NCBI GenBank assembly: GCA_011525905.1
Contig: WYBK01000176.1
Span: forward strand, 1-45,656
DNA: 45,656 bases
Direction: 5' to 3'
Source of the DNA: Acidobacteriota bacterium
Lineage (GTDB): Bacteria; Acidobacteriota; Thermoanaerobaculia; Multivoradales; JAGPDF01
Shown: positions 4,299 through 26,438 of the stretch, in pieces
Layout: every line of letters begins with the position of its first letter
How positions within the stretch are numbered: the first letter of the stretch is position 1
Made by a program: the position numbers and the translations under genes
The notes under the pieces: generated by a model
What the model saw: the letters and a program-made list of their open reading frames with translations, nothing else
Told to the model about the DNA's origin: nothing
Database searches by the model: none

Positions 4299-4476
4299 GC
4301 GGAAGGGCTCTCCGGAGGGAACTACGGCGCCGGTTCCCTCGAGTTCCGGCCCGAGCTCCCGTCCGTGTCGCGGCGGACCCGAGGGGCTCGGTCGAGGCGC
4401 GGAATTCGGCTAGGATTCAGTGCCGTCCCGCGAGGGGCGCGACCGATTCCTGCACGACTCGACGAGGGGAGGGCCC

Positions 4477-7163: not shown

Positions 7164-7164
7164 C

Positions 7165-8862: not shown

Positions 8863-10230
8863 TCAACCGTCCGGCAGCCGGACCTCGAAGCAGACCCCCT
8901 CGGAGCCGCCGTCGAGCAGCTCGACGGAGCCGCCGTGCGCCTCGGCGGCCCAGCGCACGACCGAGAGGCCGAGGCCGCCGATGCCGGTGCCGGCACCACC
9001 CCGGTAGTAGCGGTCGAACAGGCGCGGCCGCTGCTCGGGCGGGATCGCGGGGCCGGAGTTGGCGACCCGGATCCGCGCCTCGGCGCTCGTCCGCTCGACC
9101 TCGACGCGGACCGGCCCATCCGGCGTGCCGTGCTTGATCGCGTTGTCGAGCAGGTTGAACAGGACGAGCCGGACCAGCTGCTCGTCGGCGCAGACGACCG
9201 CGCGCTCGTCGACCCGCGAGACGATCGTGAGCCCACGTTCGCGGCTGGCCGGAGCGAGCCGTTCGATGGCCTCGTCGACGAGGCGTGCGAGGTGGACTTC
9301 CGAGCGGCTCAGGCGGGGCTCGGCGCCCGGCTCGGCGCGCGCCAAGGCGAGCAGCCCCTCGAGCACGGCCTGGAGGTGGACGATCTCCTGCAGGTTCTCG
9401 GCGAGCAGGCGCCGGTACTCCTCGGGGGCCCGCTCCCGCCGCAGGGTCACCTCGATGCCGGTGCGCAGCACCGAGAGCGGGTTGCGGATCTCGTGCGAGG
9501 CGTCCGCGGTGAAGCGGCGCATCGCCTCCAGGCTCCCCGCCAGGCGCTCGAGCAGGTCGTCGAAGGCGTCGGCGAGGATCGCGACCTCCTCGACGGCCGG
9601 GTGGCGCGGACCCAGCCGGCGATGGGGCTGCTCCGGGTCGATCGCGCGGATCGCGGCGACCAGGCCGGCGATCGGCGCCAGCGCCCGGCGGGCGAGCAGG
9701 CGGCCGCCGAGCGCGGCGCCCGGAATCACGACGAGCCCGACCAGGCCGAGGATGAGACCGAGCCGCCGCTCGGCGGCGATCACCCGGTCGAGCGAGCCGA
9801 TCGCTTCGGCGACCAGCCCGCTGCCGAGCCGGCGCCCCCGGCCGCCGACCGCGTGGGCGACCAGCAGGTAGCGGCCGCCCGCCTCGCTCATCTCGATGGT
9901 GACGACCTCCTCCGTCAGGTCCTCGCTCGAGACCGGCAGCGCCGGGGCCCCCGGGGTTGCGGCGAGCAGCTCGCCGCCGCCGCGCACCCGCAACCAGATG
10001 CGCATCGGCTCCTCCTCGGGAGCCTGCAGCTCGGGCGCGTCGAGCCGGCCGCTGGCGGCGACGTAGGCGGCCAGCGCCTCGGCCTCGTTCTTGAGCGTCA
10101 GGGCGGCGAGGTCGCGGCGCGCGCGGGCCGAAGTCAGCCAGACCGCGCCGGCGACGGTGCCGTAGAGCAGGAGCAGCGTGAGCGCGAAGCGCCGCGCGAT
10201 GCCGCGCTCGAGCGAAGCGCCGGAGCTCAC
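8863..10230 (-). CDS. Sensor histidine kinase (two TM segments, HAMP, HisKA, HATPase_c)
   Basis: H-box FTADASHEIRNPL, N-box LLDNAIKH, G-box GIGGLGLSVV. GTG 10230 overlaps the response-regulator stop (GTGA). The track ORF extends further upstream in frame through the regulator gene. Confidence 0.85.
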   Translation of the reverse strand: MSSGASLERGIARRFALTLLLLYGTVAGAVWLTSARARRDLAALTLKNEAEALAAYVAASGRLDAPELQAPEEEPMRIWLRVRGGGELLAATPGAPALPVSSEDLTEEVVTIEMSEAGGRYLLVAHAVGGRGRRLGSGLVAEAIGSLDRVIAAERRLGLILGLVGLVVIPGAALGGRLLARRALAPIAGLVAAIRAIDPEQPHRRLGPRHPAVEEVAILADAFDDLLERLAGSLEAMRRFTADASHEIRNPLSVLRTGIEVTLRRERAPEEYRRLLAENLQEIVHLQAVLEGLLALARAEPGAEPRLSRSEVHLARLVDEAIERLAPASRERGLTIVSRVDERAVVCADEQLVRLVLFNLLDNAIKHGTPDGPVRVEVERTSAEARIRVANSGPAIPPEQRPRLFDRYYRGGAGTGIGGLGLSVVRWAAEAHGGSVELLDGGSEGVCFEVRLPDG

Positions 10231-10907
10231 CGTGGCGGCTCGATCGACAGCCGCCAGCCGACGCCGGGAACCGTGTGCAGGAGCCTGGGGGCGCCATCCG
10301 CCTCGAGCTTGCGGCGCAGCCGGCCGACGATGACGTCGACGACGTTGCTGCGCGCCTCGTAGTCCGCGTCCCAGACGTGCTCGGCGAGCGTGGCGCGCGC
10401 GAGCGCCACACCGGGGTGGAGCAGGAAGTACTCGAGCAGGGCGAGCTCTTTGGGCGTCAGGTCGAGCGGCCGGCTGCCGCGGCTCGCCGTCCGGGCGGTG
10501 CGATCGAAACGGAGGTCTCCGACCTCGACGACCTCGACCGGCGGTGTCGCCCGGCGCCGCAGCAGGGAGCGGACCCGCGCCAGCAGCTCCTCGAAGGCGA
10601 ACGGCTTGGTCAGGTAGTCGTCGGCCCCGGCGTCGAGGCCGGCTACCTTCTCCTCGGTCCGGTCTTGCGCGGTGAGCACCAGCACCGGCGCGGTGAATCC
10701 TTCCGTCCGCCATTCCCGCAGCAGGTCGGTGCCCGAGCCGTCGGGGAGCCGGAGATCGAGCAGCACCAGGTCGTAGTCGGCCTCGAGCGACCGGTCGCGC
10801 GCGGCCGCCAGGCCATGGGCGACGTCGGCGGCGAACCCCTCCTCGCGCAGGCCGGCGGCGAGCCGTTCCGCGAGCCGCCGCTCGTCCTCGACGACCAGGA
10901 GGCGCAC
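10227..10907 (-). CDS. OmpR-family response regulator (REC + winged helix)
   Basis: 226 aa. LVLLDLRLPDGSG, YLTKPF, C-terminal TPKELALLEYF ... VPGVGWRL. GTG start. Confidence 0.9.
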   Translation of the reverse strand: MRLLVVEDERRLAERLAAGLREEGFAADVAHGLAAARDRSLEADYDLVLLDLRLPDGSGTDLLREWRTEGFTAPVLVLTAQDRTEEKVAGLDAGADDYLTKPFAFEELLARVRSLLRRRATPPVEVVEVGDLRFDRTARTASRGSRPLDLTPKELALLEYFLLHPGVALARATLAEHVWDADYEARSNVVDVIVGRLRRKLEADGAPRLLHTVPGVGWRLSIEPPR

Positions 10908-10925
10908 GCCGCGACTATAGCCGAG

Positions 10926-10945
10926 CGCCGTTCATCCGCCGTTCA
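10926..10945. promoter_or_regulatory. 9-bp direct repeat CGCCGTTCA x2 with 11-bp period (candidate OmpR-type box) in the divergent promoter region
   Basis: Copies at 10926-10934 and 10937-10945. A minus-strand TATAGT (10919-10914) sits 6 nt upstream of the regulator's GTG. Confidence 0.35.
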
Positions 10946-11002: not shown

Positions 11003-11599
11003 ATGAGAAAGTTCGCCTTGCTCGCCCTGATCCTGTCCTGGGGCACACTCGCGCCGGCCGCCGCCGAGGAGCGCGTCCTGGTGCTCGACCCCGCCGCCAC
11101 CGAGGTCGCCTTCGATCTGCCGGCGACCGGTCACGACGTCCACGGGCTGTTCACGCTGCGCGAGGGAGAGATCCGCTTCGATCCGGCGACCGGCGCGGCG
11201 AGCGGCGAGATCCGGGTCGACCTCGGTGCCGGCGTCACCGGCAACGCGAGCCGCGACCGGACGATGCGCGAGGAGGTGCTCGAGACGGAGCGCTTCCCGG
11301 TCGCCCGCTTCGTCGCGCGCCGGCTCGAGGGCGAGCTGCACCCGCAAGGGGCGTCGAGAATCGCGCTCGAGGGGATCCTCGACCTGCACGGCGCCGAGCA
11401 CGAGATCACGCTGCCCGCCGAAGTGGCGATCGACGGTCCCCGCCTGGTCGCCGACCTCTCCTTCCCGGTCCCCTTCGTCGAGTGGGGACTCGCGGACCCG
11501 AGCATCCTCTTCCTGCGCGTGGCCAAGATCGTCTCGGTCCAGATCCACGCCGCGGGTGAGCTGCGCGCCCCCCTCGCCGTTGGCGCCGGCGGCGACTGA
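11003..11599 (+). CDS. yceI: YceI-like periplasmic polyisoprenoid-binding protein
   Basis: ATG 11003 follows AGGAGG (10993-10998). Signal peptide MRKFALLALILSWGTLAPAAA. YceI-like beta-barrel pattern (GHDVHGLF, VTGNASRDRTMREEVLETERFP, LDLHG). Confidence 0.75.
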   Translation: MRKFALLALILSWGTLAPAAAEERVLVLDPAATEVAFDLPATGHDVHGLFTLREGEIRFDPATGAASGEIRVDLGAGVTGNASRDRTMREEVLETERFPVARFVARRLEGELHPQGASRIALEGILDLHGAEHEITLPAEVAIDGPRLVADLSFPVPFVEWGLADPSILFLRVAKIVSVQIHAAGELRAPLAVGAGGD

Positions 11600-11606
11600 G
11601 GCGCCC

Positions 11607-12581
11607 TTGCTCGCCTTGGTCGACCGGAGCCGGCCCGCTGCGCCCCGGCCACGTGCGCCGCTCGTCCTGCTCCCAGCCGCCGAGCTCGACCGCCTGCGCC
11701 TGGAGGTTCAACGGCTGCTCGCGCTACCGCGCGGAACGGAGAGCCACCTGGCCGGCGCGGTGCGCGACACGCTCGCCTCGCCGGGTTCGCTCTGGCGCGC
11801 GCAGCTGGCCTGGGCGACCGGGCGCGTCCACGGCCTCGCCCCGCGCGTCGCGCTCGATCTGGCGCTGGGGATCGAGGCGTTCCACACCGCTTCCCTGCTG
11901 TTCGACGACCTGCCGGCGATGGACGACGCCGTCACGCGCCGGGGCCGCCCCTGCGTCCACCGAGTGCACGGCGAGGCGGCGGCGCTGCTCGCCGCGCTCG
12001 GCTTCGTTCATCGCGGCTACGCGCTGGTCTGGCGAGCCTTGGCCGGTGCCCGGCCGCGGCCGCGGCGGGCGGCCGCGGCCTTGCTCGAAGAGTGCCTCGG
12101 GCTGACCGGCATTCTCGACGGCCAGGCCTGGGATCTCCACCTCGAGGGCGCCGGGCTCGCGGGAGAGCGCTGCGCGCGCGTGGTGGCGGGCAAGACCGTG
12201 CCGCTGCTGCGGCTGGCGCTGGAGCTGCCGGCGGTGGTCGCCGGCGCCCCGGCCGCCCGTCGCCGGCTGCTCGCCGAGCTGGCGCGCCGCTGGGGCCTCG
12301 CCTACCAGACCCTCGACGACGTCGAAGATCGAGTGGCGGCGCCGGATGCCGCCGCCGCGGGCGACGCCGAGCTCGGACGGCCGAACCTCGCCGGTTCGCT
12401 CGGGGCGACGGGAGCCCTCGCCCAGGTCGACGAGGAGCTGGCCGCCGTCCGGCCGCTGCTCGCGGCGCTCGAGAGCGCTCTCGGACCGGACGCCGCGCCC
12501 TATCTGCGGCTCGATGGCCACTTGCGCAGCGCGCGCTGGGCGGCGGCCGCGCGCTGCGGGGCGCCGGCACCGGCAGGATGA
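11607..12581 (+). CDS. Polyprenyl diphosphate synthase family protein (trans-isoprenyl type)
   Basis: FARM SLLFDDLPAMDDAVTRRGRP (DD..DD at 11904-11927), GQAWD, GKTVPLL, SARM YQTLDDVED (12315-12329). No ATG or GTG after the yceI stop; the only candidate starts are TTG 11607 or 11616. Confidence 0.75.
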   Translation: MLALVDRSRPAAPRPRAPLVLLPAAELDRLRLEVQRLLALPRGTESHLAGAVRDTLASPGSLWRAQLAWATGRVHGLAPRVALDLALGIEAFHTASLLFDDLPAMDDAVTRRGRPCVHRVHGEAAALLAALGFVHRGYALVWRALAGARPRPRRAAAALLEECLGLTGILDGQAWDLHLEGAGLAGERCARVVAGKTVPLLRLALELPAVVAGAPAARRRLLAELARRWGLAYQTLDDVEDRVAAPDAAAAGDAELGRPNLAGSLGATGALAQVDEELAAVRPLLAALESALGPDAAPYLRLDGHLRSARWAAAARCGAPAPAG

Positions 12582-13891
12582 GCGCCGCGCCCGCGGCAGC
12601 CGAGTCGACGCTCGCCCGGGAGGCGGCCACCGGAGCGCCGACTCGCGCCGAGAACCTGGCGGAGGCCGTCGCCGCGCACGCCCTCTTCTGGCTCCTCGTC
12701 GGGTCGGGCGTCGGGCTCTGGTTGGCGACGCTGCAGCTCGCCCCCGAGTGGGGCGCCACCCTCGGTGCCGCCACGTACGGGCGCTGGGCCGCGCTCCACC
12801 TCGACCTCACGCTCTACGGCTGGCTGGCGCTGCCGCTCGTCGGCCTGCTCCTCGATGCCTTCGGCGCCGATCGTCACGTGGCGGCGGGGCGGCTGGCGCT
12901 CGCCCTCTGGTCGGGCGCGCTCGCCGCGGGCGCGGCGAGCTGGCTCGGCGGCCGCACCTCCGGCAAGCTCTTCCTCGACTGGACCGGTCCGGCCGCGGTG
13001 CTCTTCGCCGGCGCGCAACTCGGGGTCGCGGCCCTGCTCGCGCGCGGGCTCGCCGGCTCGGTGCGCCGACAGGGCTGGAGCCGCAGCCACGTCGCCCGAG
13101 CGCTCCTGCTCGCCCTCCTGCTCGCGGTGCCGGCCCTCCTGGTCGCCGCCAGCGACGGCCGGGTCTACCCGCCGATCGACCCGGTGAGCGGCGGCCCGAC
13201 CGGCACGAGCCTGCTCGGCAGCTCGCTCGGCCTGGTCGCGCTGCTGCTCGCCGTGCCCCGGCTGCTCCGGCTGACCGAGGTGGCGGCGGGCCGCGGGCGC
13301 TGGCTCGCCCCCGGAGTCTGGCTGCTGCACGCGGCGCTCTTCGTCGGGCTCGATCATGTCGACCGGCCGAACGGGGATCCGCGCGAGCTGCTGGCCCTCG
13401 GCAGCGTGGTGATCTGGGCCTGGCTGCTGCCGCGCGAGGCCGCGCGCTTCCTCTGGCCGCCGGGCAGCCGCAAATGGCTGCGTGCCCTGGCGGCCTGGGG
13501 CCTCCTGCTGCTCGCGAGCGGCCTGCTTTCGTTCGCTCCCGGCGTGCTCGACCGGGTCAAGTTCGGCGAGGGGCTGGTCGCCCACGCGCACGTCGCGATG
13601 GCGGGGTTCGCCTCCGCCTTCGTGATGCTGGTGCTCCATCGTCTGCTCGATCGGGGCGATCGGCGGGCGACCCTCACCGCTCCGGAGCCCTTCGCGCTCT
13701 GGCAGGGAGGGCTCGCCCTGCAGATCGCGGCGCTCGCCGCGCTGGGCGCGCTCGAGGCGATCGACCCGGCCGCACGGCTGCGCGGCGGGGGCACCCTCGA
13801 TGCGCTGCTGGCGCTGCGCTGGGTCGGGGGGGCGGCGATGCTCGCGGCAACGATCGGCTGGCTGCGCCAGCTCGTCCGGCGGCCGGCATGA
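12578..13891 (+). CDS. Polytopic membrane protein resembling haem-copper oxidase subunit I (CcoN/NorB-like) but without a complete CuB His set
   Basis: 437 aa. ATGA overlap with the upstream gene. YGRWAALHLDLTLYGW (H74 codon 12797-12799) and LVAHAHVAMAGF (H336/H338 at 13583-13591) resemble the HCO TM2 and TM10 haem-ligand motifs. There is no His between residues 171 and 251. Confidence 0.55.
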   Translation: MSAAPAAAESTLAREAATGAPTRAENLAEAVAAHALFWLLVGSGVGLWLATLQLAPEWGATLGAATYGRWAALHLDLTLYGWLALPLVGLLLDAFGADRHVAAGRLALALWSGALAAGAASWLGGRTSGKLFLDWTGPAAVLFAGAQLGVAALLARGLAGSVRRQGWSRSHVARALLLALLLAVPALLVAASDGRVYPPIDPVSGGPTGTSLLGSSLGLVALLLAVPRLLRLTEVAAGRGRWLAPGVWLLHAALFVGLDHVDRPNGDPRELLALGSVVIWAWLLPREAARFLWPPGSRKWLRALAAWGLLLLASGLLSFAPGVLDRVKFGEGLVAHAHVAMAGFASAFVMLVLHRLLDRGDRRATLTAPEPFALWQGGLALQIAALAALGALEAIDPAARLRGGGTLDALLALRWVGGAAMLAATIGWLRQLVRRPA

Positions 13892-14328
13892 GCCGGGCCG
13901 CCACGCGAGCCCTCGGTCGAGGTCGCGAGCGCGTGTTGCCCGCGTTCTGCGCGGTCGCGGGCGGCGGCGACCTGCTGACCGGGCTCCTCTTGCTCGCCCG
14001 TCCGGCCGTGGCGCTCGCGCCGCTCGGCCTGACGGTACCGGCCGAGTCCTGGGTCTTCCTGCGCTGGATCGGCCTCTTCGTCGCCGCGGTCGGGACGATC
14101 TACCTGCAACCCTGGAGGCTCCCCCCGGGCTCCGAGCGGCGGTCGCGGCTGCGCGCAGCCCTCGAGATCACCGCGCTCGTCCGGCTGGCGGTCGCCGCTT
14201 TCGTCGCCGGCGCGGTCCTCGCTGCGGAGCTTGCCGCCCCCTGGCTCGCCGTCGGCGGTTACGACGCGCTGGTGGCGCTCGGGCAGCTCTTCCTATTGCC
14301 TGCGGCGAAGGCTCCCGATGTCCACTGA
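13888..14328 (+). CDS. Small hydrophobic membrane protein (about 4 TM), function unknown
   Basis: 146 aa. ATGA overlap with the upstream gene; an 11-nt overlap with the downstream gene. Confidence 0.55.
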   Translation: MSRAATRALGRGRERVLPAFCAVAGGGDLLTGLLLLARPAVALAPLGLTVPAESWVFLRWIGLFVAAVGTIYLQPWRLPPGSERRSRLRAALEITALVRLAVAAFVAGAVLAAELAAPWLAVGGYDALVALGQLFLLPAAKAPDVH

Positions 14329-16222
14329 CCGACGCCGCCTGGTGAGTGTCGCCGCGGCGGTCGCGGCGGTTTACTTCGCTTTCCTGCTCTGCGCCCAGTT
14401 CGGCTTCCTGGCGCAGCTGGAACGCGCGCTGGGCGCCGAGCCGCGCGCGTTGCAGGGAGCGCTCGCCGCGATGGCGGTGGCCGGAGTGGCCGCGGGCGTC
14501 GCGGCGGCGCGCACGCTCGTCCGGCGCTCGGGCCGCGGCGCCGTGCGCGCCGGCCTGCTGGCGGTGGCGGTGGCCTGCGCCGCGTCGATCGGCGCTCGCC
14601 AGGCGCCGACTCTCGTGCTCGCCGCGGCCGGCTTGGGCGCGGCGCTCGGCTGGGCGACGGTGGCGCTCGCCGGCTCGCTCCTCCGGCTCGCCCCGGCGGG
14701 CGCGGCCGGGCGCGCGGCGGGATTCGGCACCGGCGCCGCCTACCTGCTGGCGAACCTGCCGCCGCTCTTCGCGGGCGATCCGGCGCTGCGCGCCGCCGTC
14801 CCGGCGGCGGCCTGCGTGCTGGCTGCGGGGTTGCTGCCCAGCGACCGCAGGCCTCCGCCGGAGCGGCTGCCGCAGGCTGGCGAGCGCTCGCACATCGCGG
14901 CAGCGGGCGATTTTCCGGCGCTGGTCATGGCCTTCCTGCTGCTCGTCGCCCTCGATTCGGCGGCCTTCGCCGCCATTCAGCACGACTCGGTTCTCCTCGC
15001 GGTCAGCTGGGGGGGGGACGCTCACGCGATGCGACAGGGTCTCGTCCACCTGCTCGCGGCTTGCGCCGCCGGCGTCGCGCTCGACCGCGGCGGGCTGCGG
15101 GCCCTGCTGCTGGCCGCCGGCGCGAGCTTCGCCATCGCGCTGCCCGCGCTCGGCGCTGGGGCGGCCGCCGCGGCGCTCGCCGCCCCTCTCTACGCGGTCG
15201 GCATCTCGGCCTACAGCGCGGCGCTGGTCGCGGCGCCCTCCCTGGCGGGGGGTGCGGTGCCCAGGACGGCGGCCAGCCGCGCCGCCTGGCTCTTCGGAGT
15301 CGCCGGCTGGCTCGGCTCGGGGCTGGGGGTCGGGGCGGCGAAGCACCTCGGATGGCCGGTGATCGCCGGCGCCGCGCTCGCGGTCCTCGGCGCCGTCGCG
15401 GCGCTGTTGGCGCCGAGCGTCCGCGGCCGGGCGCGCGAGACGGCGCTCGCCCTCGCGGTGGGAGCCTGCGGCGGCTTCGTCGCGCTGCGCTCGCCGGCGC
15501 CGGCCGACGACCCGGTCGCGCGCGGCCGGCAGGTCTATCTCGCCGAAGGCTGCCAGCACTGCCACTCGCAGTACGTGCGTCCGGTGGCGCAGGACGCCCT
15601 CTGGTGGGGGCCGCGCCGCGAGCTCGACCGGCGGGAGCATCCGCCCACCCCCGGGAATCGCCGGATCGGCCCGGATCTGGCCAACGTCGGAGTGCGTCGC
15701 GCCGCGCTCTGGCAGGAGCGGCACTTGCGGGACCCGCGAGCGCTGTCGCCGGCCTCGAGCATGCCTTCCTACGCCCACCTGTTCGCCACCGGCGAGCGAC
15801 GGGGGTCCGATCTGGTCGCCTACCTGGGCTCGCTCGGTGCGGGGGCCGAGGCGGCACGGCTGGCCACGATCCGGCGGGCGCCGATGGCGGCGGCGCCGCA
15901 GGTACCCTCGGCGTCGCGCGGCGCCCGACTCTTCGCGCGCCACTGCGCCCCCTGCCACGGCGAAGGGGGCCGCGGCGATGGCGGCGCCCTGGGCGACCTC
16001 GCCCTGCCGGGGCTCGACCTGCGCGAGGGAGCGCTCCGCCGAGCTCGCGACTACGGCGTCGACGAGCCGCTCGAGCGGGCGGTGGCGCGGGTGATCCGCT
16101 TCGGCCTGCCCCCCTGGCTGATGCCGGGGCACGAATGGCTCTCCGCGCAGGAGGTCGGCGATCTCGCCGCCTTCGTGATCGAGCTCTCGGCGAGCGGCGA
16201 CGTCCGGGTGGCCGCTCGATGA
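14318..16222 (+). CDS. Fusion protein: MFS-like polytopic domain + CcoO (cbb3 subunit II/NorC-like) monohaem domain + second cytochrome c domain
   Basis: 634 aa. Residues 1-395 are a hydrophobic 6+6-like domain with a central loop. GRQVYLAEGCQHCHSQYVRP ... GPDLANVG ... SSMPSY matches CcoO (CQHCH at 15551-15565). The second haem motif CAPCH is at 15944-15958, with an MPG Met ligand. Confidence 0.8.
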   Translation: MSTDRRRLVSVAAAVAAVYFAFLLCAQFGFLAQLERALGAEPRALQGALAAMAVAGVAAGVAAARTLVRRSGRGAVRAGLLAVAVACAASIGARQAPTLVLAAAGLGAALGWATVALAGSLLRLAPAGAAGRAAGFGTGAAYLLANLPPLFAGDPALRAAVPAAACVLAAGLLPSDRRPPPERLPQAGERSHIAAAGDFPALVMAFLLLVALDSAAFAAIQHDSVLLAVSWGGDAHAMRQGLVHLLAACAAGVALDRGGLRALLLAAGASFAIALPALGAGAAAAALAAPLYAVGISAYSAALVAAPSLAGGAVPRTAASRAAWLFGVAGWLGSGLGVGAAKHLGWPVIAGAALAVLGAVAALLAPSVRGRARETALALAVGACGGFVALRSPAPADDPVARGRQVYLAEGCQHCHSQYVRPVAQDALWWGPRRELDRREHPPTPGNRRIGPDLANVGVRRAALWQERHLRDPRALSPASSMPSYAHLFATGERRGSDLVAYLGSLGAGAEAARLATIRRAPMAAAPQVPSASRGARLFARHCAPCHGEGGRGDGGALGDLALPGLDLREGALRRARDYGVDEPLERAVARVIRFGLPPWLMPGHEWLSAQEVGDLAAFVIELSASGDVRVAAR

Positions 16223-17154
16223 GGGGACGCCGCTTCGCGACGGCCGGGCTGCTGCTCTCCGCCTCCGCGCTCGCTCTGCACTCCGGGTGGGGGAGGGGGG
16301 AGCGCCCCTGGCGGGAGGCGACCGGCTTCGACCGGGTGCCCCCGCCGCTGCGGCCGCCGGACGATCTGCCCTGGCCAGCGGCGGTCGGGCCGCCGCCCCG
16401 ACTGGCCTGGCTCGGCCATGCCGGCTTCCTGCTGGAGTGGCGAGGCGCCCGGCTGCTGGTCGACCCGAACCTCTCCCCGCGGTGCTCGCTGGTGCGGCGC
16501 CGAATGGAACGCGCGATCGGACCGGCGCAGCTCGGAGCGCTCGACGCCGTCCTGCTGACTCACGCCCACTACGACCATCTCGATCGGCCGACGCTCGCCG
16601 CCCTCGAGCGAGTCGGTCGCTTGCTGCTGCCGGCGGGCAGCGAGGGCTACGTCGCCGGGTTGCGCTCCGACGCGGCCGTCGAGGGGGTCGCGGCCTGGGC
16701 CTCGGTGACGGTCGCCGGCCTGGAAATCGTCGGGGTGCCGGCCTTCCACCACGGCCACCGGCACCATCCGCTGGCGAGCTCCAAACAGGCCCTCGGCTGG
16801 GTGGTTCGCGGCGGCGGGGCCTCGATCTACTTCGCCGGCGACACCGGCGCGGCGAACGACTTCGCCGCCATCGGCGAGCGCTTCCATCCGGCGATCGCCG
16901 TGCTGCCGATCGGCGCCTACGCGCCGCCCTGGCCGATCGGGCGGGTCCATCTCTCGCCGGTGCAGGCGGTCGAGGCGGCGATCCGACTCGGCCGCCCGCT
17001 CGTGGTGCCGGCCCACTTCGGCACCTTCGCGCTGGCGCTCGACCGGCCGGCGGCGGCGCTGCCCCGCTTCGCCCTCGCCGCCGCCGGTGGCGGCGTCGAG
17101 TGGCGGATGCCCCGGTTGGCGCGCGCTGCCGCCGCGAACGAGGGAACGTCGTGA
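16219..17154 (+). CDS. MBL-fold metallo-hydrolase (Lactamase_B_2 / NAPE-PLD-like), membrane-anchored or secreted
   Basis: 311 aa. ATGA overlap. N-terminal hydrophobic segment. LTHAHYDHLD metal motif, FAGDTG, PAHFGTF. Confidence 0.75.
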   Translation: MRGRRFATAGLLLSASALALHSGWGRGERPWREATGFDRVPPPLRPPDDLPWPAAVGPPPRLAWLGHAGFLLEWRGARLLVDPNLSPRCSLVRRRMERAIGPAQLGALDAVLLTHAHYDHLDRPTLAALERVGRLLLPAGSEGYVAGLRSDAAVEGVAAWASVTVAGLEIVGVPAFHHGHRHHPLASSKQALGWVVRGGGASIYFAGDTGAANDFAAIGERFHPAIAVLPIGAYAPPWPIGRVHLSPVQAVEAAIRLGRPLVVPAHFGTFALALDRPAAALPRFALAAAGGGVEWRMPRLARAAAANEGTS

Positions 17155-19241
17155 GCAGCCGGCTGGCGGCCTTCTGGGAGCGCCGGCTGGGCGGGCTGGT
17201 CGAGCTCGCGCTGCGCAGGCCGCGAACCGTCCTCGCGATCGCCGGGGTGGTGGCGGCTCTCTCCGGGGCGCTCGTCGTCACCCGCCTCGAGCTGCGCAGC
17301 TCCAACCTCGACCTGATCGATCCGCGGCTGCCCGAGATCGCCCGCTTCCGCGACTTCGCGGCCCGCTTCGGCACGCCCAACGTCCTGATCGTCGCGCTGG
17401 AAGGGGAGGAGCGCGTCCGCCTCGCGCGGCTCGCCGACCGCCTGGCCTCGGCGCTCCCGCGAGTGACCGGCGTGCGCTCGGTGCTCGCCCGCTTGCCCTT
17501 TCGCGACGAGACGCTCGCGGCGTTCGGCGTGGCCCCGCATTTCTTCTCCGACGACGGCCGGAGGCTCTATCTCTTCGTGCAACCGGCGGACGCCGACTCC
17601 GCGGCGGCCACCATCGCGCCCTTCGTCGCCGGCGTGCGAGCGGCCGTCGCGGCGCTCGCGCCGGAGCGCGAAGGCATTCGGGTCGGCTTCACCGGGCTAC
17701 CGCAGTACGCGCTCGACGACCGCGACTTCGTGCGGCGCGACCTCTCGCGCCTTTCGGCGCTGTCGTTCGCCCTGGTGGCGGCGCTCTTCGTCGCCGGCTT
17801 TCGCGGCGTGCGGCAGCCGCTCCTCGCGATGGCCACGCTGGCGCTGGCGGCGCTCGCGACCGCCGGTGTCGCGGCGCTCGCGCCCGGCCATCTGACCCTG
17901 GTCTCGGCCTTCTTCTTCTCGATCCTCTTCGGGCTGGGGATCGATTTCGCGGTCCACCTGCTGGACGCGGTGGCGGAGCGGCGCGCGCTCGGCGAGCGGC
18001 TCGAGCCAGCGATCGCCGGTTCGGCGCGCTTCTTGGCCCCCGGCCTGGGCACGGGGGCGGCGACCACGGCGCTCTCCTTCTTCGTTCTCCTGGTCTCCGG
18101 CTTCCGAGGATTCGCCGAGCTCGGCTGGCTCGCCGGAGTCGGCGTCCTGCTCGCGCTGCTCGCCACGCTGACCGTTCTGCCCGCGGCCCTCTGTCTGCTG
18201 CCGCCGTCCTCGGCTCGACCACGCGCGGCGCACGAGCGCCGGACCGGTCGCTGGCTGCTGGCCGCCCAGCGGCCGGGCATCGCCCTGGCGCTGTTCGGGA
18301 TCGCGGCCGGCTCGCTCCTGGTCGGACCGCCGCCGTTCGACGGCAACTACCTGAACCTGGAGCCGGCGGGCTCCGAGGCGGTTCGCCTGGAGCGCGAGAT
18401 GGTGCGCGGCTCGACCTTTGCGCCGCAGTTCGCGGCGTTCGTGGTGGCCGATGCGGCGGCGGCGCGACGGCTCGCCGCCGAGCTGCGTCGCGAGGAAACG
18501 GTCGCTTCGGTGCGCACGCTCACCGACCTGGCGCCCCTGGTCGGCCTCGGCGCGGCGCTGCCGGAGGCCTTCGAGGGCTTCCGCTCGCTGTTCGTCGATC
18601 CGGAGGGGCGGCACGCCGTCTACGCCTATCCGGCCGGCGACGTCTGGGAGCCGGGATTCCAGCAGAGGTTTCTCGACGCCATGCGGCGTCTCGACCCCGA
18701 GGTCACCGGCATGCCCTTCGTCGGGCGATTCCTGGTCGACCGCTCGCACCGGGCACTGCGCCGCACCGTCTGGCTCGCCGCGGCGCTGCTCGTCGCCGTG
18801 GTGCTCGCCGACTTCGCGCGACCGACGGCGGCGCTGCTGGCGACGTTGCCGACCTTTCTCGGCCTGATGGTCCAGCTGGGGGCGATGCGGCTGCTCGGCG
18901 TGCCGCTCAACCCGCTCGACATCCTGGCTTTTCCGGTAGTCCTGGGCATCGCCGAGGACAGCGGCGTCCACCTCGTGCACCGCTACCTGGCGGAACGGGG
19001 CGACCTGGCGCGCACGCTCGCGGGCGCCGGCCGTACGGTGCTGCTCTGCGGCGTGACGACCCTCGCCGGCTTCGGCGGGCTCGCCGCCGCGACGCACCGC
19101 GGCCTCGCCTCGTTCGCGCTCGCGCTCGCGCTCGGAGTCGCCGCGGCGCTCGTCTTCTCGCTGCTGCTGCTGCCGCAGCTCCTGCGGTTCGCGCTGCCGC
19201 GCGCCGGGTTCGCCGAGGGGCGCGCGGAGGAGCCCGCGTGA
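17151..19241 (+). CDS. MMPL/RND-superfamily transporter (HpnN-like architecture, two 6-TM bundles)
   Basis: 696 aa. GTGA overlap. Two repeats, each a periplasmic loop followed by TM bundles, with GLGIDFAVHLL and GIAEDSGVHLVHRY motifs. Confidence 0.8.
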   Translation: MSSRLAAFWERRLGGLVELALRRPRTVLAIAGVVAALSGALVVTRLELRSSNLDLIDPRLPEIARFRDFAARFGTPNVLIVALEGEERVRLARLADRLASALPRVTGVRSVLARLPFRDETLAAFGVAPHFFSDDGRRLYLFVQPADADSAAATIAPFVAGVRAAVAALAPEREGIRVGFTGLPQYALDDRDFVRRDLSRLSALSFALVAALFVAGFRGVRQPLLAMATLALAALATAGVAALAPGHLTLVSAFFFSILFGLGIDFAVHLLDAVAERRALGERLEPAIAGSARFLAPGLGTGAATTALSFFVLLVSGFRGFAELGWLAGVGVLLALLATLTVLPAALCLLPPSSARPRAAHERRTGRWLLAAQRPGIALALFGIAAGSLLVGPPPFDGNYLNLEPAGSEAVRLEREMVRGSTFAPQFAAFVVADAAAARRLAAELRREETVASVRTLTDLAPLVGLGAALPEAFEGFRSLFVDPEGRHAVYAYPAGDVWEPGFQQRFLDAMRRLDPEVTGMPFVGRFLVDRSHRALRRTVWLAAALLVAVVLADFARPTAALLATLPTFLGLMVQLGAMRLLGVPLNPLDILAFPVVLGIAEDSGVHLVHRYLAERGDLARTLAGAGRTVLLCGVTTLAGFGGLAAATHRGLASFALALALGVAAALVFSLLLLPQLLRFALPRAGFAEGRAEEPA

Positions 19242-20140
19242 GGTCGGCGATTCTGTGCGGGGCGGTCGGCCGTGCCCTCGCCGGTGGGCTGCTGGCGGCG
19301 GCCTGCGCCGGCGCGGCGAGCGCGACGGCGTTCGAGGAGCAGCGCGCGGCGACCTGCTGGGCGGCACGCCACCGGGGCTTCGAAGCGACCGGCCGAGTCG
19401 ACCCGGCGCCGGTCCGGTGCGCGATCGAGGGATTCGGCGCCGCTGCGGCGGCCGCACCGGAGCGACTCGAGCCGAGGTTTCGCGAGATCGAGGCGCTCTG
19501 GTTCGCGGCGCACTTCGTCCGCATGCCCGGCGGCGAGGCGCGGACGCTGCTCGACCGCTGCGTCGAGGTCGCGGAGGGAGCGGTCGCCGAGGTCGCGAGG
19601 CGGGCAGGAGGTGCCGCCCTCGACCCGGGCGCCGACTTCGAGCTCCGGGCCGCAGCGCTGGCGCCGATTCCCGGGGCGGGCGCCGCACACTTCTGGGCCG
19701 CGATCGCCTGGGGCGAGTGGGCGCTCCAGCACGGCGCCCTCGCCGCTCTCGCGCGGGGAGTCCCCACCAGGTTGCGTCGGCACGCCGAGCTCGCGGCGCG
19801 GCTCGCGCCCGGCCTGCGCGACGGCGGCGGCCTCCGGCTCCTCGGGCGCCTGCATGCCTCGCTGCCGCGGATTCCGGGTCTGACCGGTTGGGTCGACCGC
19901 GCGCGCGGCGTCGAGCTCCTGCGCGAGGCGGCCGCCCGCTGGCCCGGCGATCCGAGGAACCGGCTCTTCCTCGCCGAGGCCCTGCTCGAGCGAGACCCGT
20001 CGTCCAGCGGCGAAGCGCTCGCCCTGCTCGAAGACCTGGCGAACGATCGCGCCGATCCGGAGGAGCGGGTCGAGCAGGCCGAGACGCTCCACGCGGCGGC
20101 CGACCTGCTGCGGCGTCTCTCCGTCGAGAGAGCCCGATGA
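19238..20140 (+). CDS. Helical-repeat (TPR/TatT-like) putative lipoprotein, function unknown
   Basis: 300 aa. GTGA overlap. N-terminal LLAAAC lipobox-like signal. Alpha-helical repeat composition. Confidence 0.5.
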   Translation: MRSAILCGAVGRALAGGLLAAACAGAASATAFEEQRAATCWAARHRGFEATGRVDPAPVRCAIEGFGAAAAAAPERLEPRFREIEALWFAAHFVRMPGGEARTLLDRCVEVAEGAVAEVARRAGGAALDPGADFELRAAALAPIPGAGAAHFWAAIAWGEWALQHGALAALARGVPTRLRRHAELAARLAPGLRDGGGLRLLGRLHASLPRIPGLTGWVDRARGVELLREAAARWPGDPRNRLFLAEALLERDPSSSGEALALLEDLANDRADPEERVEQAETLHAAADLLRRLSVERAR

Positions 20141-20832
20141 GCCCGGCCGCGGCCGACCCCTACGCGGCCTATCTGCGCGCCTTCTTCGCTCGGTGGAGCT
20201 CGCTCTACGACCTGTTCGCGGCGCCGATCGGATTCGTCTACCGCGCGGCGGCTCGCCAGGCGGGCGCCGCCCCCGGCCGGCGGCTCCTCGACCTGTGCAC
20301 CGGCACCGGAGAGCTCGCGCTCCGCTGCGCCCGGCTCGGCGCGCAGGTCACCGCGGCCGACTTCACGGCCTCGATGCTCTGGCGCGCGCGGGCCAAGGCG
20401 CGCGGCCGCGGCCTCCGGCTGGTCGAAGCGGATGCCCGGCGGCTGCCGTTCGCGGACGCGAGCTTCGACGTCGTCCTGCTCTCCTTCGCGCTCCACGACA
20501 TGCCGGCCCGGGCGCGGGTGGAGTCGCTGCTCGAGGCGACACGCGTCGCGCGCGAGCGGGTGATCGTCGTCGACTACGACCCGCCGACGAGAGGCCTCGG
20601 AGGCCGGTTGGTGACCGCCATGCTCGCGAGCTTCGAAACCGCCTACTTGCGCGGCTTCCTGCGTGCCGGCGGTACTCCGGCGGCGATCGCCGCCGCTGGC
20701 CTCGGGGTCGAGCGCCGGCGGCGGGCGCTCCCGGGGCTGTTCGGGATCTGGTCGGTCGCGGCCGCCGTTCAGCCGAGCACGCGCCGGATCTCGGCCTCGA
20801 GCACCCCCGGTTCGAGCTCGACGAGCTCGTAG
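20137..20832 (+). CDS. Class I SAM-dependent methyltransferase (UbiE/COQ5-like)
   Basis: 231 aa. ATGA overlap. Motif I LLDLCTGTGELA, then ADFTASML, LPFADASFDVVLLSFALHD. The 3' end overlaps the convergent gene by 64 nt. Confidence 0.75.
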   Translation: MSPAAADPYAAYLRAFFARWSSLYDLFAAPIGFVYRAAARQAGAAPGRRLLDLCTGTGELALRCARLGAQVTAADFTASMLWRARAKARGRGLRLVEADARRLPFADASFDVVLLSFALHDMPARARVESLLEATRVARERVIVVDYDPPTRGLGGRLVTAMLASFETAYLRGFLRAGGTPAAIAAAGLGVERRRRALPGLFGIWSVAAAVQPSTRRISASSTPGSSSTSS

Positions 20833-22085
20833 GTGACGCCGACCACCGGCTTGTCGGAGGCCAGGACGCGGGCCAGGTCGATCGGCGTCCCCTCGACCAC
20901 GACGTCAGCGGGCGTGGCGCGGATGGTCGCCTCGAGGTCGCGCACCTGCTCGTCGCCGTAGCCCATGGCGGGCAGGATGCCGGCCGCGTTCGGGTACTTG
21001 GCGTAGGTCTCGACCAGCGAGCCGACCGCGTACGGGCGCGGGTCGACGATCTCAGCGGCGCCGGCGTCGCGGGCGGCGAACCAACCCGCGCCCACGCTCA
21101 TGCCGCCGTGGGTGAGGGTGGGGCCGTCCTCGACCACCAGCGCCCGGCGGCCGTGGATCGCGGCCGGGTCCGAGGCGCGGATCTCCGAGGCGCAGCGCAC
21201 GATGCGCGCGCGCGGGTTGATCCGGCGGCAGTTCGCCTCGACCTCCGCCACCTTGTCGGCCTCGGCGGTGTTGACCTTGTTGACGATCACGAGGTCGGCC
21301 ATCAGGACGTTGGTCTCGCCCGGGTAGTAGGAGATCTCGTGCCCGGGCCGGTGCGGGTCGACCAGGACGACGTGGAGATCGGAGCGATAGAAGGGAGTGT
21401 CGTTGTTGCCGCCGTCCCAGAGGATGACGTCGGCTTCCTTCTCGGCCTCGCGCAGGATCTTCTCGTAGTCGACGCCGGCGAAGACCACGAAGCCGTTGTC
21501 GATGTGCGGCTCGTACTCCTCGCGTTCCTCGATCGTGCACTCGTGCCGGTCGAGGTCCTCGTAAGTCGCGAAGCGCTGGCAGACCTGGCGCGCGAGGTCG
21601 CCGTAGGGCATCGGGTGGCGGATCGCGACGACCCGTTTGCCCATCGCCTTGAGGATGCGCGAGACGAAGCGGGTCGTCTGCGACTTGCCGACCCCGGTGC
21701 GCACTGCGGTGATGGCGATCACCGGCCGGACCGAGGAGACCATGGTCGCGGTGGCCGAGGCGAGCGTGAAGTGGGCGCCCCAGCCGTTGACGTGGGCAGC
21801 CTTGTCCATGACGTAGCCGTGCGACACGTCGGAATAGGAGAACCAGACCTCGTCGACCCGCTCGTCGCGGACGAGCCGTTCGAGCTGCTCTTCGGCGACG
21901 ATCGGGATGCCGTCGGGGTAGCGCTTCCCCGCCAGCACGGCGGGGTAGCGGCGCCCCTCGATGTCGGGGATCTGCGTCGCGGTGAAGGCGACGACCTCGA
22001 ACTCCGCGCGGTCGCGGAAGAGCACGTTGAAGTTGTGGAAATCGCGCCCGGCGGCGCCCATGATCACGACACGTCTCGGCGACAT
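20769..22085 (-). CDS. COG2403-type P-loop protein (cyclic 2,3-diphosphoglycerate synthetase-like GTPase family)
   Basis: 438 aa. N-terminus VVIMGAAGRDFHNFN, P-loop RTGVGKSQT. GAAGGAGG lies upstream of the ATG. Confidence 0.6.
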   Translation of the reverse strand: MSPRRVVIMGAAGRDFHNFNVLFRDRAEFEVVAFTATQIPDIEGRRYPAVLAGKRYPDGIPIVAEEQLERLVRDERVDEVWFSYSDVSHGYVMDKAAHVNGWGAHFTLASATATMVSSVRPVIAITAVRTGVGKSQTTRFVSRILKAMGKRVVAIRHPMPYGDLARQVCQRFATYEDLDRHECTIEEREEYEPHIDNGFVVFAGVDYEKILREAEKEADVILWDGGNNDTPFYRSDLHVVLVDPHRPGHEISYYPGETNVLMADLVIVNKVNTAEADKVAEVEANCRRINPRARIVRCASEIRASDPAAIHGRRALVVEDGPTLTHGGMSVGAGWFAARDAGAAEIVDPRPYAVGSLVETYAKYPNAAGILPAMGYGDEQVRDLEATIRATPADVVVEGTPIDLARVLASDKPVVGVTYELVELEPGVLEAEIRRVLG

Positions 22086-22178
22086 CGAACCTCCTTCGTC
22101 GGTCCGGCGGCAGCTTATCCTCCCGGCCGGGCGGCGCCCCCCGCGCCCGGGGGCGGGGGGCGCGCGCGGCCGCGCGGG

Positions 22179-23686: not shown

Positions 23687-23843
23687 CAAGACCGGTTGCC
23701 ACATCGGAATCGGGAAGCTATCCTGGGAAGGCAGTTTCCTGCCGCGCGGCCCCGTCGGACGGATGGGCCCGCCACGAGATTCCGCGAGAGCCGCCGGGCG
23801 AGAGGCCGGCGCGGCGCCCGGCACGAGACGAAGGAGGTGACCG

Positions 23844-25190
23844 ATGCAAGAGCCCCGGCCCGCGCGTTTCCGCGCCGTCGGCCTGAACAACGTGGCGAAG
23901 CGGCCCGAGTGGTCGCGCCTCGATCCGGCCGAGCGGCGCGCCGTCGAGGTCGTCTCGCGCGTGCTGCCGTTCCGCACCAACGCTTACGTCATGGAGGAGC
24001 TGATCGACTGGAGCCGCATCCCGGACGATCCCATCTTTCAGCTCACCTTTCCGCAGCGGGGCATGCTCGACCGCGAGCAGTTCGACCGCATCGCCGCGCT
24101 GGTCGACCGGAAAGCACCGCGCGAGGAGATCGAGGCCGAGGCGAACCGCGTGCGGCTCGAGCTGAATCCGCATCCGGCCGGCCAGCTGACCCACAACGTC
24201 CCGGAGCTCGACGGCCGCCGCCTTCCCGGTCTGCAGCACAAGTACCGCGAGACGGTGCTCTTCTTCCCCGGCCAGGGCCAGACCTGTCACGCCTACTGCA
24301 CCTACTGCTTCCGCTGGGCGCAGTTCGTCGGGCTGCCCGAGATGAAGTTCGAGGCGCGGGAGACCGACGACCTGCTCGCCTACCTGCGCGCGCATCCCGA
24401 GGTCACCGACGTGCTGGTCACCGGCGGCGACCCTCTGATCATGAAGACCAAGGCGCTGCGCCGCTACCTCGAGCCGCTGCTCGCGCCGGAGTTCGAGCAC
24501 GTGCGCAACCTCCGGATCGGCACCAAGTCGCTGGCCTACTGGCCGCAGCGCTTCGTCAGCGACGACGACGCCGACGACCTGCTGGCCTTCTTCGAGCAGT
24601 TGGTGGCGGCTGGCCGGCACGTCGCCCTGATGGCGCACTGGAGCCACCCGCGGGAGCTGGCGCCGGAGATCGTCCGCCGCGCGGTCGCGCGCGTGCGCGC
24701 CACGGGGGCGCAGATCCGCATGCAGGCGCCGCTGGTGCGCCGGGTCAACGACTCGGCGGCGCTCTGGGCGTCGATGTGGCGTATCGGCGTGCGGCTGGGA
24801 ATGATCCCGTACTACATGTTCGTCGAGCGCAACACCGGCCCGAAGAACTACTTCGAGGTGCCGCTCGCCCGCGCCCAGCGGATCTTCGCCGACGCCTACC
24901 GCCAGGTCTCCGGCCTCGCGCGCACCGTGCGCGGCCCGTCGATGTCGGCCTTTCCCGGCAAGGTCCGGGTGGTCGGCACGGCCGAGCTCGGCGACCAGCG
25001 CGTCTTCGTGCTCGAGCTGCTGCAGGCGCGCGATCCGGAGCGGGTCGGGCGCCCGTTCTTCGCTCGCTTCGACCCGCGCGCCGCCTGGTTCACCGAGCTC
25101 GCTCCGGCGACCGAGCGCGACGCTCCGTTCTTCGCGACGGCTTCGGCGGCCCTGGCGTCGGCGGCATCCGGCGACCGGGTGGTAGCCTGA
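23844..25190 (+). CDS. KamA-family radical SAM aminomutase-like protein
   Basis: 448 aa. CHAYCTYC cluster motif (24285-24308), HKYRETVLFF, VTGGDPL, IPYYMFVERNTGP. GAAGGAGG lies upstream of the ATG. Confidence 0.8.
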   Translation: MQEPRPARFRAVGLNNVAKRPEWSRLDPAERRAVEVVSRVLPFRTNAYVMEELIDWSRIPDDPIFQLTFPQRGMLDREQFDRIAALVDRKAPREEIEAEANRVRLELNPHPAGQLTHNVPELDGRRLPGLQHKYRETVLFFPGQGQTCHAYCTYCFRWAQFVGLPEMKFEARETDDLLAYLRAHPEVTDVLVTGGDPLIMKTKALRRYLEPLLAPEFEHVRNLRIGTKSLAYWPQRFVSDDDADDLLAFFEQLVAAGRHVALMAHWSHPRELAPEIVRRAVARVRATGAQIRMQAPLVRRVNDSAALWASMWRIGVRLGMIPYYMFVERNTGPKNYFEVPLARAQRIFADAYRQVSGLARTVRGPSMSAFPGKVRVVGTAELGDQRVFVLELLQARDPERVGRPFFARFDPRAAWFTELAPATERDAPFFATASAALASAASGDRVVA

Positions 25191-25193
25191 GGC

Positions 25194-26405: not shown

Positions 26406-26438
26406 GCGACGGCCGGCCTCTGCGATAGAAATGGGGGA

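Follow-up and report, generated by a model that had tools for sequence, protein, structure and literature searches.

A conserved gene cluster of Acidobacteriota and Verrucomicrobiota that links a CcoN-like protein, predicted to lack the CuB site, to isoprenoid and lipid-handling genes

Lipocalins of the YceI family carry octaprenyl phosphate, octaprenylphenol or ubiquinone-8 (PMC9113575), and YceI is coupled at the gene level to a di-haem membrane cytochrome with a protective role against lipid peroxidation (Naguib et al., 2022; PMC9113575). In the Acidobacteriota, a microaerobic lifestyle has been proposed on the strength of calls of type C haem-copper oxidases (HCO) (Eichorst et al., 2018; PMC5900883), and 'cbb3' genes have been listed for two cultured strains, namely Terro_4248 (ccoN), 4249 (unknown) and 4250 (ccoO) in Terriglobus roseus and ACP_0885, 0887 and 0888 in Acidobacterium capsulatum (Trojan et al., 2021; PMC8407424). 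Here we analyze a locus of nine consecutive plus-strand genes at positions 11003-20832 of a 45,656-nucleotide stretch of DNA (contig WYBK01000176.1 of assembly GCA_011525905.1; hereafter the window) from an Acidobacteriota bacterium. As judged from sequence comparison and structure prediction, the locus is one conserved multi-gene system, and its CcoN-like membrane protein has the fold of cbb3 subunit I, keeping the haem b and b3 histidines and lacking the three CuB histidines and the cross-linked tyrosine. The reading that we favor, with somewhat less than even confidence, is that of an envelope system that would make, export and redox-service a short-chain isoprenoid, possibly prenylquinone, lipid and that would not be an O2 or nitric oxide (NO) reductase.

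The CcoN-like protein (12578..13891, plus strand, 437 aa) was modeled with AlphaFold2 using a 44-sequence alignment (pLDDT 89.8, pTM 0.91) and has 12 transmembrane (TM) helices. The best Foldseek matches were CcoN structures (8SMR_E, 9G6B_A, and 3MK7_A; TM-score 0.64-0.68), followed by cNOR, qNOR, ba3 and bo3, and in hidden Markov model (HMM) searches the family profile matched only CcoN chains in the PDB. CcoN references were rebuilt from PDB alignments and compared with the family profile by global hhalign (probability 96%). In this alignment the low-spin haem b ligands of CcoN, His60 in helix II and His347 in helix X, correspond to H74 and H338, and its high-spin haem b3 ligand, His345 in helix X, corresponds to H336. 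Of the CuB ligands, His207 (helix VI) is matched by S211, and His257 and His258 (helix VII) by R263 and P264 (Ser, Arg and Pro/Ser in the family); the cross-linked Tyr251 has a gap opposite it. Direct reading of the sequence, which is independent of the alignment, found no histidine in helix VI or its preceding loop, and a residue census of 82 species found no HH pair at the CuB site of helix VII across the family. The FeB site of cNOR and qNOR consists of three His and a Glu, and the same three His positions are missing from the CcoN-like protein. Invariant in the 82 species are H74, H336, T208, K328, E393 and R414, and the position of H338 is a His in 39 of the 82 members, those of the Verrucomicrobiota keeping this helix-X residue.

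These ligand assignments bear on the possibility that the protein belongs to a genuine, divergent cbb3-type oxidase or NO reductase that lies beside lipid genes by chance. The CcoN-like fold and the CcoO-like partner domain described below would suit such an enzyme, family members go under the name 'cytochrome c oxidase cbb3-type subunit 1' at the Joint Genome Institute (JGI), some members reach the Pfam COX1 model and published genome analyses count the genes as type C HCO (PMC5900883, PMC8407424). However, the three canonical CuB/FeB histidines and the cross-linked tyrosine are absent, helix VI is without His, and the window protein had no Pfam match at the gathering threshold, COX1 (PF00115) included, a precomputed PF00115 match being carried by only a minority of its relatives. 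Neither ccoQ, ccoP nor ccoGHIS genes accompany it, an extra 4-TM gene separates the putative 'N' and 'O' genes, the 'O' is fused to an MFS domain, lipid genes are linked to it by synteny and by fusions in both phyla, and the genes were not induced at low O2 (PMC8407424). We consider a true oxidase or NO reductase very improbable.

Two further proteins were examined in connection with the CcoN family and set aside. The 'COX1' paralogue of locus L003 was tried as a canonical CcoN reference and rejected as atypical (GLAH, not GHVH) and as giving a local alignment only, and L031:16899-18956, a candidate CcoNO, turned out to be only a cytochrome c protein. In L003 a second HCO subunit I gene (19584-20975, minus strand) lies beside genes for FixO and FixS; its distance downstream of the cluster is about 8 kb, and its end is about 4.8 kb past the last cluster gene. 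It keeps the CuB motifs (YIHD and GVHH equivalents), has 'GLAH' instead of 'GHVH' in helix X and seems, from these motifs, to lack the proximal histidine of haem b3.

The CcoN-like family was found in 386 GTDB species genomes of the Acidobacteriota and Verrucomicrobiota, with at least 243 matches in the 90% database and at least 210 clusters at 50% identity (E <= 1e-30); at least 1,267 clusters at 90% identity were found in one branch, and family members share 38-65% identity. In order to determine the genomic context, the nine window proteins were searched against the open reading frames (ORFs) of 83 loci, and the counts given here refer to the 59 loci with enough flanking sequence. The prenyl diphosphate synthase gene (pps), the CcoN-like gene and both the MFS part and the CcoO/cytochrome c part of the fusion gene were present in all 59, the small 4-TM gene in 57, yceI in 52 and a response regulator gene in 44. 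The MMPL (RND) transporter was found in 23 loci, the metallo-beta-lactamase-fold (MBL) hydrolase in 19, the methyltransferase in 11 and the BstC-like protein in seven; MBL genes occur near ABC-type loci too. The initial annotation had treated all nine genes as one set and asked for a check of gene neighborhood: the genes are syntenic across the Acidobacteriota and Verrucomicrobiota, about five of the nine form the conserved core, and the MMPL, MBL, methyltransferase and BstC-like genes vary from locus to locus.

In the 36 loci without MMPL, pps is always separated from the CcoN-like gene by genes for a LolD-like ATPase and a LolC/E-like permease. The RND and the LolCDE-like ABC modules are mutually exclusive (23 vs 36 loci, no overlap), and RND-type and ABC-type loci both occur in both phyla. 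Genes for an isochorismate synthase lie on the same strand in five RND-type loci, above the TIGR00543 cutoff and in L003 fused to pps, and genes for a UbiA/MqnP-like prenyltransferase lie on the same strand in nine RND-type loci, above the TIGR01475 cutoff. Natural fusions join several of the parts: the CcoN-like protein, with its C-terminus, is fused to the small protein in P0313, P0314, and P0327; P0340, which sits in an ABC-type locus with yceI and pps, combines the CcoN-like protein, a linker, the MFS domain and the CcoO/cytochrome c part in one 1,130-aa protein; and cytochrome c and MBL are fused in L003 and P0417.

The type of transporter is also mirrored in the CcoN-like protein. RND-type members often carry H251, H260 and H265 together near helix VII, with H251, H260 and N265 in the window. 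Positions 251 and 260 covary: RND-type loci have His/His (or His/x), and the ABC-type loci of the Acidobacteriota have Glu/Arg. Among 82 homologues residue 251 tracks the transporter type in both phyla with two exceptions, and position 265 is His in 75 of the 82 members and Asn in the window.

Immediately downstream of the CcoN-like gene lies the gene for the small 4-TM protein (13888..14328, plus strand, 146 aa), which matches no Pfam family and is always found between the CcoN-like and fusion genes. The fusion gene itself (14318..16222, plus strand) encodes 634 aa. Its N-terminal 364 residues (14318..15409) form a 12-TM MFS fold according to AlphaFold2 and Foldseek, with matches to OxlT, NorA, VMAT and SLC37 at target TM-scores of 0.6-0.75; Pfam MFS_1 was matched in one relative only, and 30 of the 30 homologues found for this part are fused to FixO and cytochrome c. 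A 13th TM helix (residues 371-389) corresponds to the CcoO anchor and carries two c-haem domains to the periplasm. The first of these is a CcoO/FixO-like mono-haem cytochrome c domain (15512..15832) with a CxxCH motif at residue 412, in which C412, C415 and H416 are invariant; it scored 86.5 bits with Pfam FixO (cutoff 29.6) and, below the cutoff of 200.65, 80.9 bits with the NCBIfam ccoO model. The second is a CcoP-like periplasmic c-type cytochrome domain (15911..16195; Pfam Cytochrom_C and Cytochrome_CBB3) with CxxCH at residue 543, and two CxxCH motifs are present in 64 of 68 fused homologues. A CcoA-type copper importer was also considered for the MFS domain. CcoA has Met/His motifs, and none such were noticed among the conserved residues.

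The remaining six genes of the locus were identified by comparison with Pfam, NCBIfam and the PDB. The secreted YceI-family lipocalin (11003..11599, plus strand) has an N-terminal signal peptide, scored 72.9 bits with Pfam YceI (cutoff 23.7) and has as its nearest PDB relatives the polyisoprenoid-binding TT1927b (1WUB) and BcnA (5IXH). The pps gene (11607..12581, plus strand) encodes a short-chain trans-prenyl diphosphate synthase of the farnesyl/geranylgeranyl diphosphate (FPP/GGPP) type (Pfam polyprenyl_synt, 97.8 bits vs cutoff 27; nearest NCBIfam models FPPsyn and CrtE) with both Asp-rich motifs present (DDLPAMDD and DDVED); its start is uncertain between TTG at 11607 or 11616 and the overlapping GTG at 11556 or TTG at 11580. 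Ahead of the first of these motifs, positions -5/-4 hold Ala-Ser in the window protein, and 73 of 77 loci have [A/S]-Ser there. E. coli IspA has a Tyr at -5, and by the chain-length rule the small residues at these positions suggest a product of C20 or longer.

The NAPE-PLD-like MBL hydrolase (16219..17154, plus strand) scored 107 bits with Pfam Lactamase_B_2 and is most similar in the PDB to human NAPE-PLD (4QN9, E 8.5e-24); it has the HxHxDH metal motif (THAHYDH, residues 114-120) and an RRF Tat-like signal, and is predicted to be exported. The RND protein (17151..19241, plus strand, 696 aa), a predicted lipid exporter, was matched by the NCBIfam models HpnN (4e-84, 283 vs cutoff 752) and BstA (6e-77, 259.5 vs 1400) and by PDB HpnN 6WU0 (E 7e-31), and these scores indicate that it is clearly homologous to HpnN but not an equivalog. 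Similarly, the protein encoded at 19238..20140 (plus strand, 300 aa, with signal peptide), a TPR-like helical, predicted lipid-binding protein of the TatT family, matched PDB 7T1S over residues 74-257 (E 1.6e-11) and NCBIfam BstC (1.8e-14, 53.8 vs cutoff 350), and by these measures is a homologue, not an equivalog, of BstC. The last gene (20137..20832, plus strand) encodes a UbiE/MenG-like class I S-adenosylmethionine (SAM) methyltransferase, which scored 48.5 bits with Pfam Ubie_methyltran (cutoff 20.1) and 67.8 with NCBIfam MenG_MenH_UbiE (cutoff 158; 8e-19), generic methyltransferase models scoring higher. Its last approximately 25 residues form a Ser/Thr-rich low-complexity tail, so the functional C-terminus may be shorter, and its ORF overlaps by 64 nt (20769-20832) a convergent minus-strand gene at 20769-22178 with a weak CobW-like match. 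All gene labels of the initial annotation agree with these Pfam, NCBIfam and PDB assignments, two of them in sharpened form, as its 'MMPL' is HpnN/BstA-like and its 'TPR-like lipoprotein' a BstC homologue.

The combination of isochorismate synthase, MMPL and MFS in some loci was also considered as a system for siderophore export. This was rejected as the principal interpretation because HpnN is a much nearer relative of the RND protein than MmpL4/5 are and because pps and YceI belong to the core of the locus, isochorismate synthase being rare.

At a GC content of about 75% long spurious ORFs are plentiful in the window, and it was by plotting third-position GC for each frame that the nine consecutive plus-strand genes were picked out; they show strong codon bias and have intact reading frames. 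Start-codon enumeration and direct reading of the junctions gave ATGA junctions at 12578, 13888, 16219 and 20137, GTGA junctions, read directly, at 17151 and 19238, and an 11-nt overlap at 14318-14328 between the start of the fusion gene and the stop of the small TM gene at 14328. The yceI ATG is preceded 6 nt upstream by an AGGAGG Shine-Dalgarno sequence, and a gap of 7 nt separates the yceI stop at 11599 from TTG 11607, the first candidate start of pps. The run of nine genes with seven overlapping junctions had thus been located correctly at every coordinate given previously. That the overlaps might be artefacts of wrong start calls, as had also been suggested, is contradicted by relatives of 43-47% identity, in which the same overlapping junctions are found in independent gene calls (overlaps of 11, 4, 1, 20, 4, and 11 nt in L001). 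For several genes the overlapping start is the sole start that keeps conserved N-terminal residues, and a start of the HCO-like protein at 12722 was ruled out because the conserved H34 would be lost. Since [AG]TGA tetramers occur about 2.8 times per kb at this GC content, a single overlap means little; the conserved run of overlaps and the synteny together are well beyond chance. The stoichiometric co-production that had been deduced from the junctions does not follow from them alone. A scan of the window for promoters and terminators found none, a result that is uninformative at 75% GC.

The intact frames also speak to the idea that the locus is the decaying remnant of a cbb3 operon without present function. 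The loss of catalytic ligands and the near-zero transcripts in two cultured strains would be in line with decay, but decay would hardly leave strong codon bias, a family of at least 210 clusters at 50% identity in 386 species with invariant residues, and conserved gene order, overlaps and gene fusions. We regard a remnant as scarcely credible.

The transcripts in question are those of the published 'cbb3' genes of T. roseus and A. capsulatum, whose expression was near zero in both strains and in A. capsulatum fell as O2 fell (PMC8407424). The order of these genes (N, unknown, O) is the order found here and not the canonical ccoNOQP. The link was made from this gene order and from the primer sequences in the supplement of PMC8407424. 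At the helix-X site Acidobacteriaceae members of the family read GHS[LF]xAMAGF, vs GHVHAGALG in canonical CcoN, and the A. capsulatum reverse primer encodes xMAMAGF with 2/20 mismatches to family loci; as weaker evidence, the T. roseus primer pair maps in family genes at exactly the published spacing with 5-6 mismatches per primer. The published A. capsulatum and T. roseus 'cbb3' genes hence appear to belong to this family. No description of the locus or of a CuB-less C-family branch was found in our literature searches, which were not exhaustive, and no characterized locus matching the gene combination, with which the initial annotation had been unfamiliar, was found in the literature searched; every part belongs to a known family, and the system and the copper-less C-family branch appear to be undescribed.

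Taken together, we tentatively propose that the locus encodes the isoprenoid-lipid envelope system named above. The divergent sensor kinase and OmpR-type regulator would probably switch the locus on. The system would then make a dedicated C15-C20 isoprenoid lipid, likeliest a short-chain prenylated quinone or a polyprenyl phosphate derivative; the MFS domain would bring it to the periplasmic face, the RND or ABC module would extract it from the inner membrane, and YceI, together with BstC where present, would carry it towards the outer membrane. A wire of haems in the order c, c, b, b3 would link the periplasmic cytochrome c pool to the lipid or its oxidized forms. It might hold a carrier-bound quinol in its reduced state or, at the b3 pocket that has no copper, reduce lipid peroxides. 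Overall, the locus would be an envelope antioxidant or redox-lipid device, analogous to the pair of BcnA (YceI) and LcoA (cytochrome b561). A working hypothesis of an isoprenoid lipid wired to a haem module had been put forward before, and it is strengthened by the RND/ABC alternatives, the quinone-type accessories, the NAPE-PLD-like MBL, the precedent of YceI plus a cytochrome (PMC9113575) and the fusions among the haem parts, the function itself being something that we infer. A bolder version is possible but doubtful, namely that a hitherto unrecognized, copper-less HCO branch no longer handles O2 or NO, that it is tethered to an MFS lipid flippase and that its b3 pocket, supplied with electrons by the fused c-type cytochromes, acts on the dedicated isoprenoid lipid; the action could be prenylquinone or lipid-peroxide reduction or prenyl-chain oxidation, after which the lipid would pass to YceI and the RND or ABC module for the outer membrane.

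Several observations weigh against the proposed redox-lipid system. The middle of the CcoN alignment by hhalign is of low confidence, and H251, H260 and H265 may form a non-canonical metal site. In all 43 of the 43 Acidobacteriota ABC-type loci the position of H338 is occupied by Phe, Leu or Ile, and bis-His ligation of haem b is consequently not universal. No prenyltransferase or isochorismate synthase was found in the window, the window methyltransferase is only generically UbiE-like and below NCBIfam cutoffs, and the UbiA that adjoins the cluster elsewhere could be a housekeeping MqnP. Which way electrons would flow, and on what the b3 pocket would act, can only be guessed.

An alternative is a lipid-modifying site, in which the copper-less b3 pocket, receiving electrons from the fused c-type cytochromes, would hydroxylate, desaturate, cleave or cyclise the isoprenoid of the dedicated synthase by means of O2 or H2O2, and the product would be trimmed by the NAPE-PLD-like hydrolase and exported as a structural lipid of the outer membrane, a hopanoid or sterol surrogate. 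The high-spin haem ligand H336 is invariant and conserved polar residues (T208, S211, S215, D262, K328, T330, E393, and R414) replace the CuB site, the core has no other candidate enzyme for the prenyl diphosphate, the exporters are homologous to the hopanoid and sterol exporters HpnN, BstA and BstC, and the MFS domain is tethered to the haem module. Yet no relative among the haem-copper oxidases is known to act on lipids, the cluster has no condensing enzyme or cyclase, the quinone-type accessories fit a quinone better than a terpenoid, and the YceI crystal ligands are linear prenyl compounds or quinones (PMC9113575), so that we judge this rather unlikely.

The retained chain of haems c, c, b and b3 and the recurring quinone-biosynthesis-like accessories would likewise fit an electron-transfer branch, that is, a quinol:cytochrome c oxidoreductase (or the reverse) with a short-chain quinone of its own. 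Rather than protecting the envelope, such a branch would pass electrons from the pool in the membrane to acceptors in the periplasm or outer membrane, or back, in extracytoplasmic respiration or metal reduction. YceI can hold ubiquinone-8 (PMC9113575), and a quinone could be delivered to the outer membrane by the lipid exporters. Against it stand the lack of multihaem outer-membrane cytochromes and porin-cytochrome genes in the loci, the near-zero expression under all respiratory conditions tested in two cultured strains (PMC8407424), and the dedicated two-component regulation, which suggests a stress response. Respiratory electron transfer of this kind is in our view decidedly unlikely.

The two-component genes just mentioned lie divergent from the operon and are co-oriented with each other. 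They encode a sensor histidine kinase (8863..10230, minus strand; HAMP, HisKA and HATPase_c domains identified by Pfam, in a frame supported by the third-position GC plot) and an OmpR-type response regulator (10227..10931, minus strand; Pfam Response_reg and Trans_reg_C), a homologue of which adjoins the cluster in the 44 loci counted above. Upstream of the response regulator L001 and L002 have genes for a hybrid histidine kinase, a FadL/Toluene_X outer-membrane channel for hydrophobic compounds and a PEGA-domain Ser/Thr kinase on the divergent strand, which may represent a wider regulatory and uptake neighborhood and which are absent from the window. An all-against-all clustering of ORFs was blurred by high-GC shadow ORFs; apart from an unannotated upstream ORF it recovered only the ABC genes, which were already known. 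Past the response regulator, at about 5.5 kb upstream of the gene for the CcoN-like protein, L011 has a conserved ORF (2751-3650, plus strand) that encodes about 300 aa and belongs to no Pfam or NCBIfam family; about 31 ABC-type loci have equivalents. In a Granulicella locus (L034:3949-6042, minus strand), a large catalase gene lies directly upstream of yceI; it was seen in this one case only and would suit a setting of oxidative stress.

The left end of the window encodes a tyrosine recombinase of the phage integrase family (429-1601) and a HAMP-SpoIIE phosphatase (2286-4409), and just upstream of the locus NuoC and NuoD are encoded as a fusion (5364-7163), followed by a gene for a NuoI-like ferredoxin (7141-7830). 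Downstream, radical-SAM-like, class I/II aminotransferase and alpha/beta hydrolase genes are arranged in tandem at 23841-27350 (plus strand); they are unrelated to the conserved cluster and show no synteny in relatives.

If the proposed reading is correct, the family would constitute a copper-less, non-respiratory HCO branch in which the scaffold is reused beyond O2 and NO reduction. In the bolder version, with a b3 pocket that acts on the lipid, the locus would be a new kind of envelope machine in the Acidobacteriota and Verrucomicrobiota, and the 'cbb3 oxidases' by which microaerobic respiration has been scored in these phyla would not be oxidases. Membership in this family would explain why the T. 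roseus and A. capsulatum 'cbb3' genes were silent at nanomolar O2, a result that had puzzled the authors of that study (PMC8407424). The annotation error would be widespread, as the family is labeled 'cbb3-type subunit I' and such calls were used to class Acidobacteria as microaerobes (PMC5900883). The locus would tie YceI lipocalins to isoprenoid supply, a haem electron wire and lipid export in a testable model for abundant soil phyla, and cultured strains that appear to carry the system exist, making experiments feasible.

Among the known systems, the CcoN/CcoO pair of cbb3 oxidases (3MK7, 8SMR, 9G6B) resembles the locus in the 12-TM subunit-I fold, in the equivalents of His60, His345 and His347, which would hold haem b and haem b3, and in a CcoO-type mono-haem c domain with TM anchor that is joined by a CcoP-like c-type domain. 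Unlike the oxidases, the locus is without the CuB histidines, the cross-linked Tyr, ccoQ and ccoGHIS, and in Acidobacteriaceae members the second helix-X His is also lost; a 4-TM gene is inserted between 'N' and 'O', and the 'O' carries an MFS fusion. A prenyl synthase gene accompanies it in every locus and YceI in most, along with an RND or ABC extractor. Homologues of all three menaquinone enzymes MenF, MqnP/MenA and MenG/UbiE recur in RND-type loci, but no single locus is complete, the window has the methyltransferase only, and the prenyl synthase of the locus looks short-chain (GGPP-like) and not octaprenyl-type. With HpnN (Doughty, 2011) and BstA/BstB/BstC (Zhai et al., 2024; PMC10942540) the locus shares an RND protein whose nearest relatives are HpnN and BstA, a BstC homologue, and the arrangement of an RND pump, a periplasmic carrier and an outer-membrane-associated binder beside lipid biosynthesis genes. 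It differs in scores far below the NCBIfam equivalog cutoffs, in the length of the RND protein (696 vs approximately 880 aa), in the absence of BstB, for which YceI would be the periplasmic carrier, in having no squalene, hopene or sterol cyclase, and in a module that is replaceable by a LolCDE-like ABC system. In BcnA-LcoA (equivalent to E. coli yceJ-yceI) YceI is coupled to a di-haem b-type cytochrome, the two being fused in some relatives of that system (PMC9113575). Here, in contrast, the cytochrome would be an HCO-derived 12-TM protein with c-type haem input and not a 4-helix b561, the locus adds its own prenyl synthase, MFS domain, lipid extractor and hydrolase, and no YceI-linked b561 gene (PF01292-type) was found. 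The resemblance is functional only. It consists in a secreted YceI that is genetically coupled to a membrane cytochrome and in the proposed redox-servicing of a lipocalin-bound periplasmic lipid.

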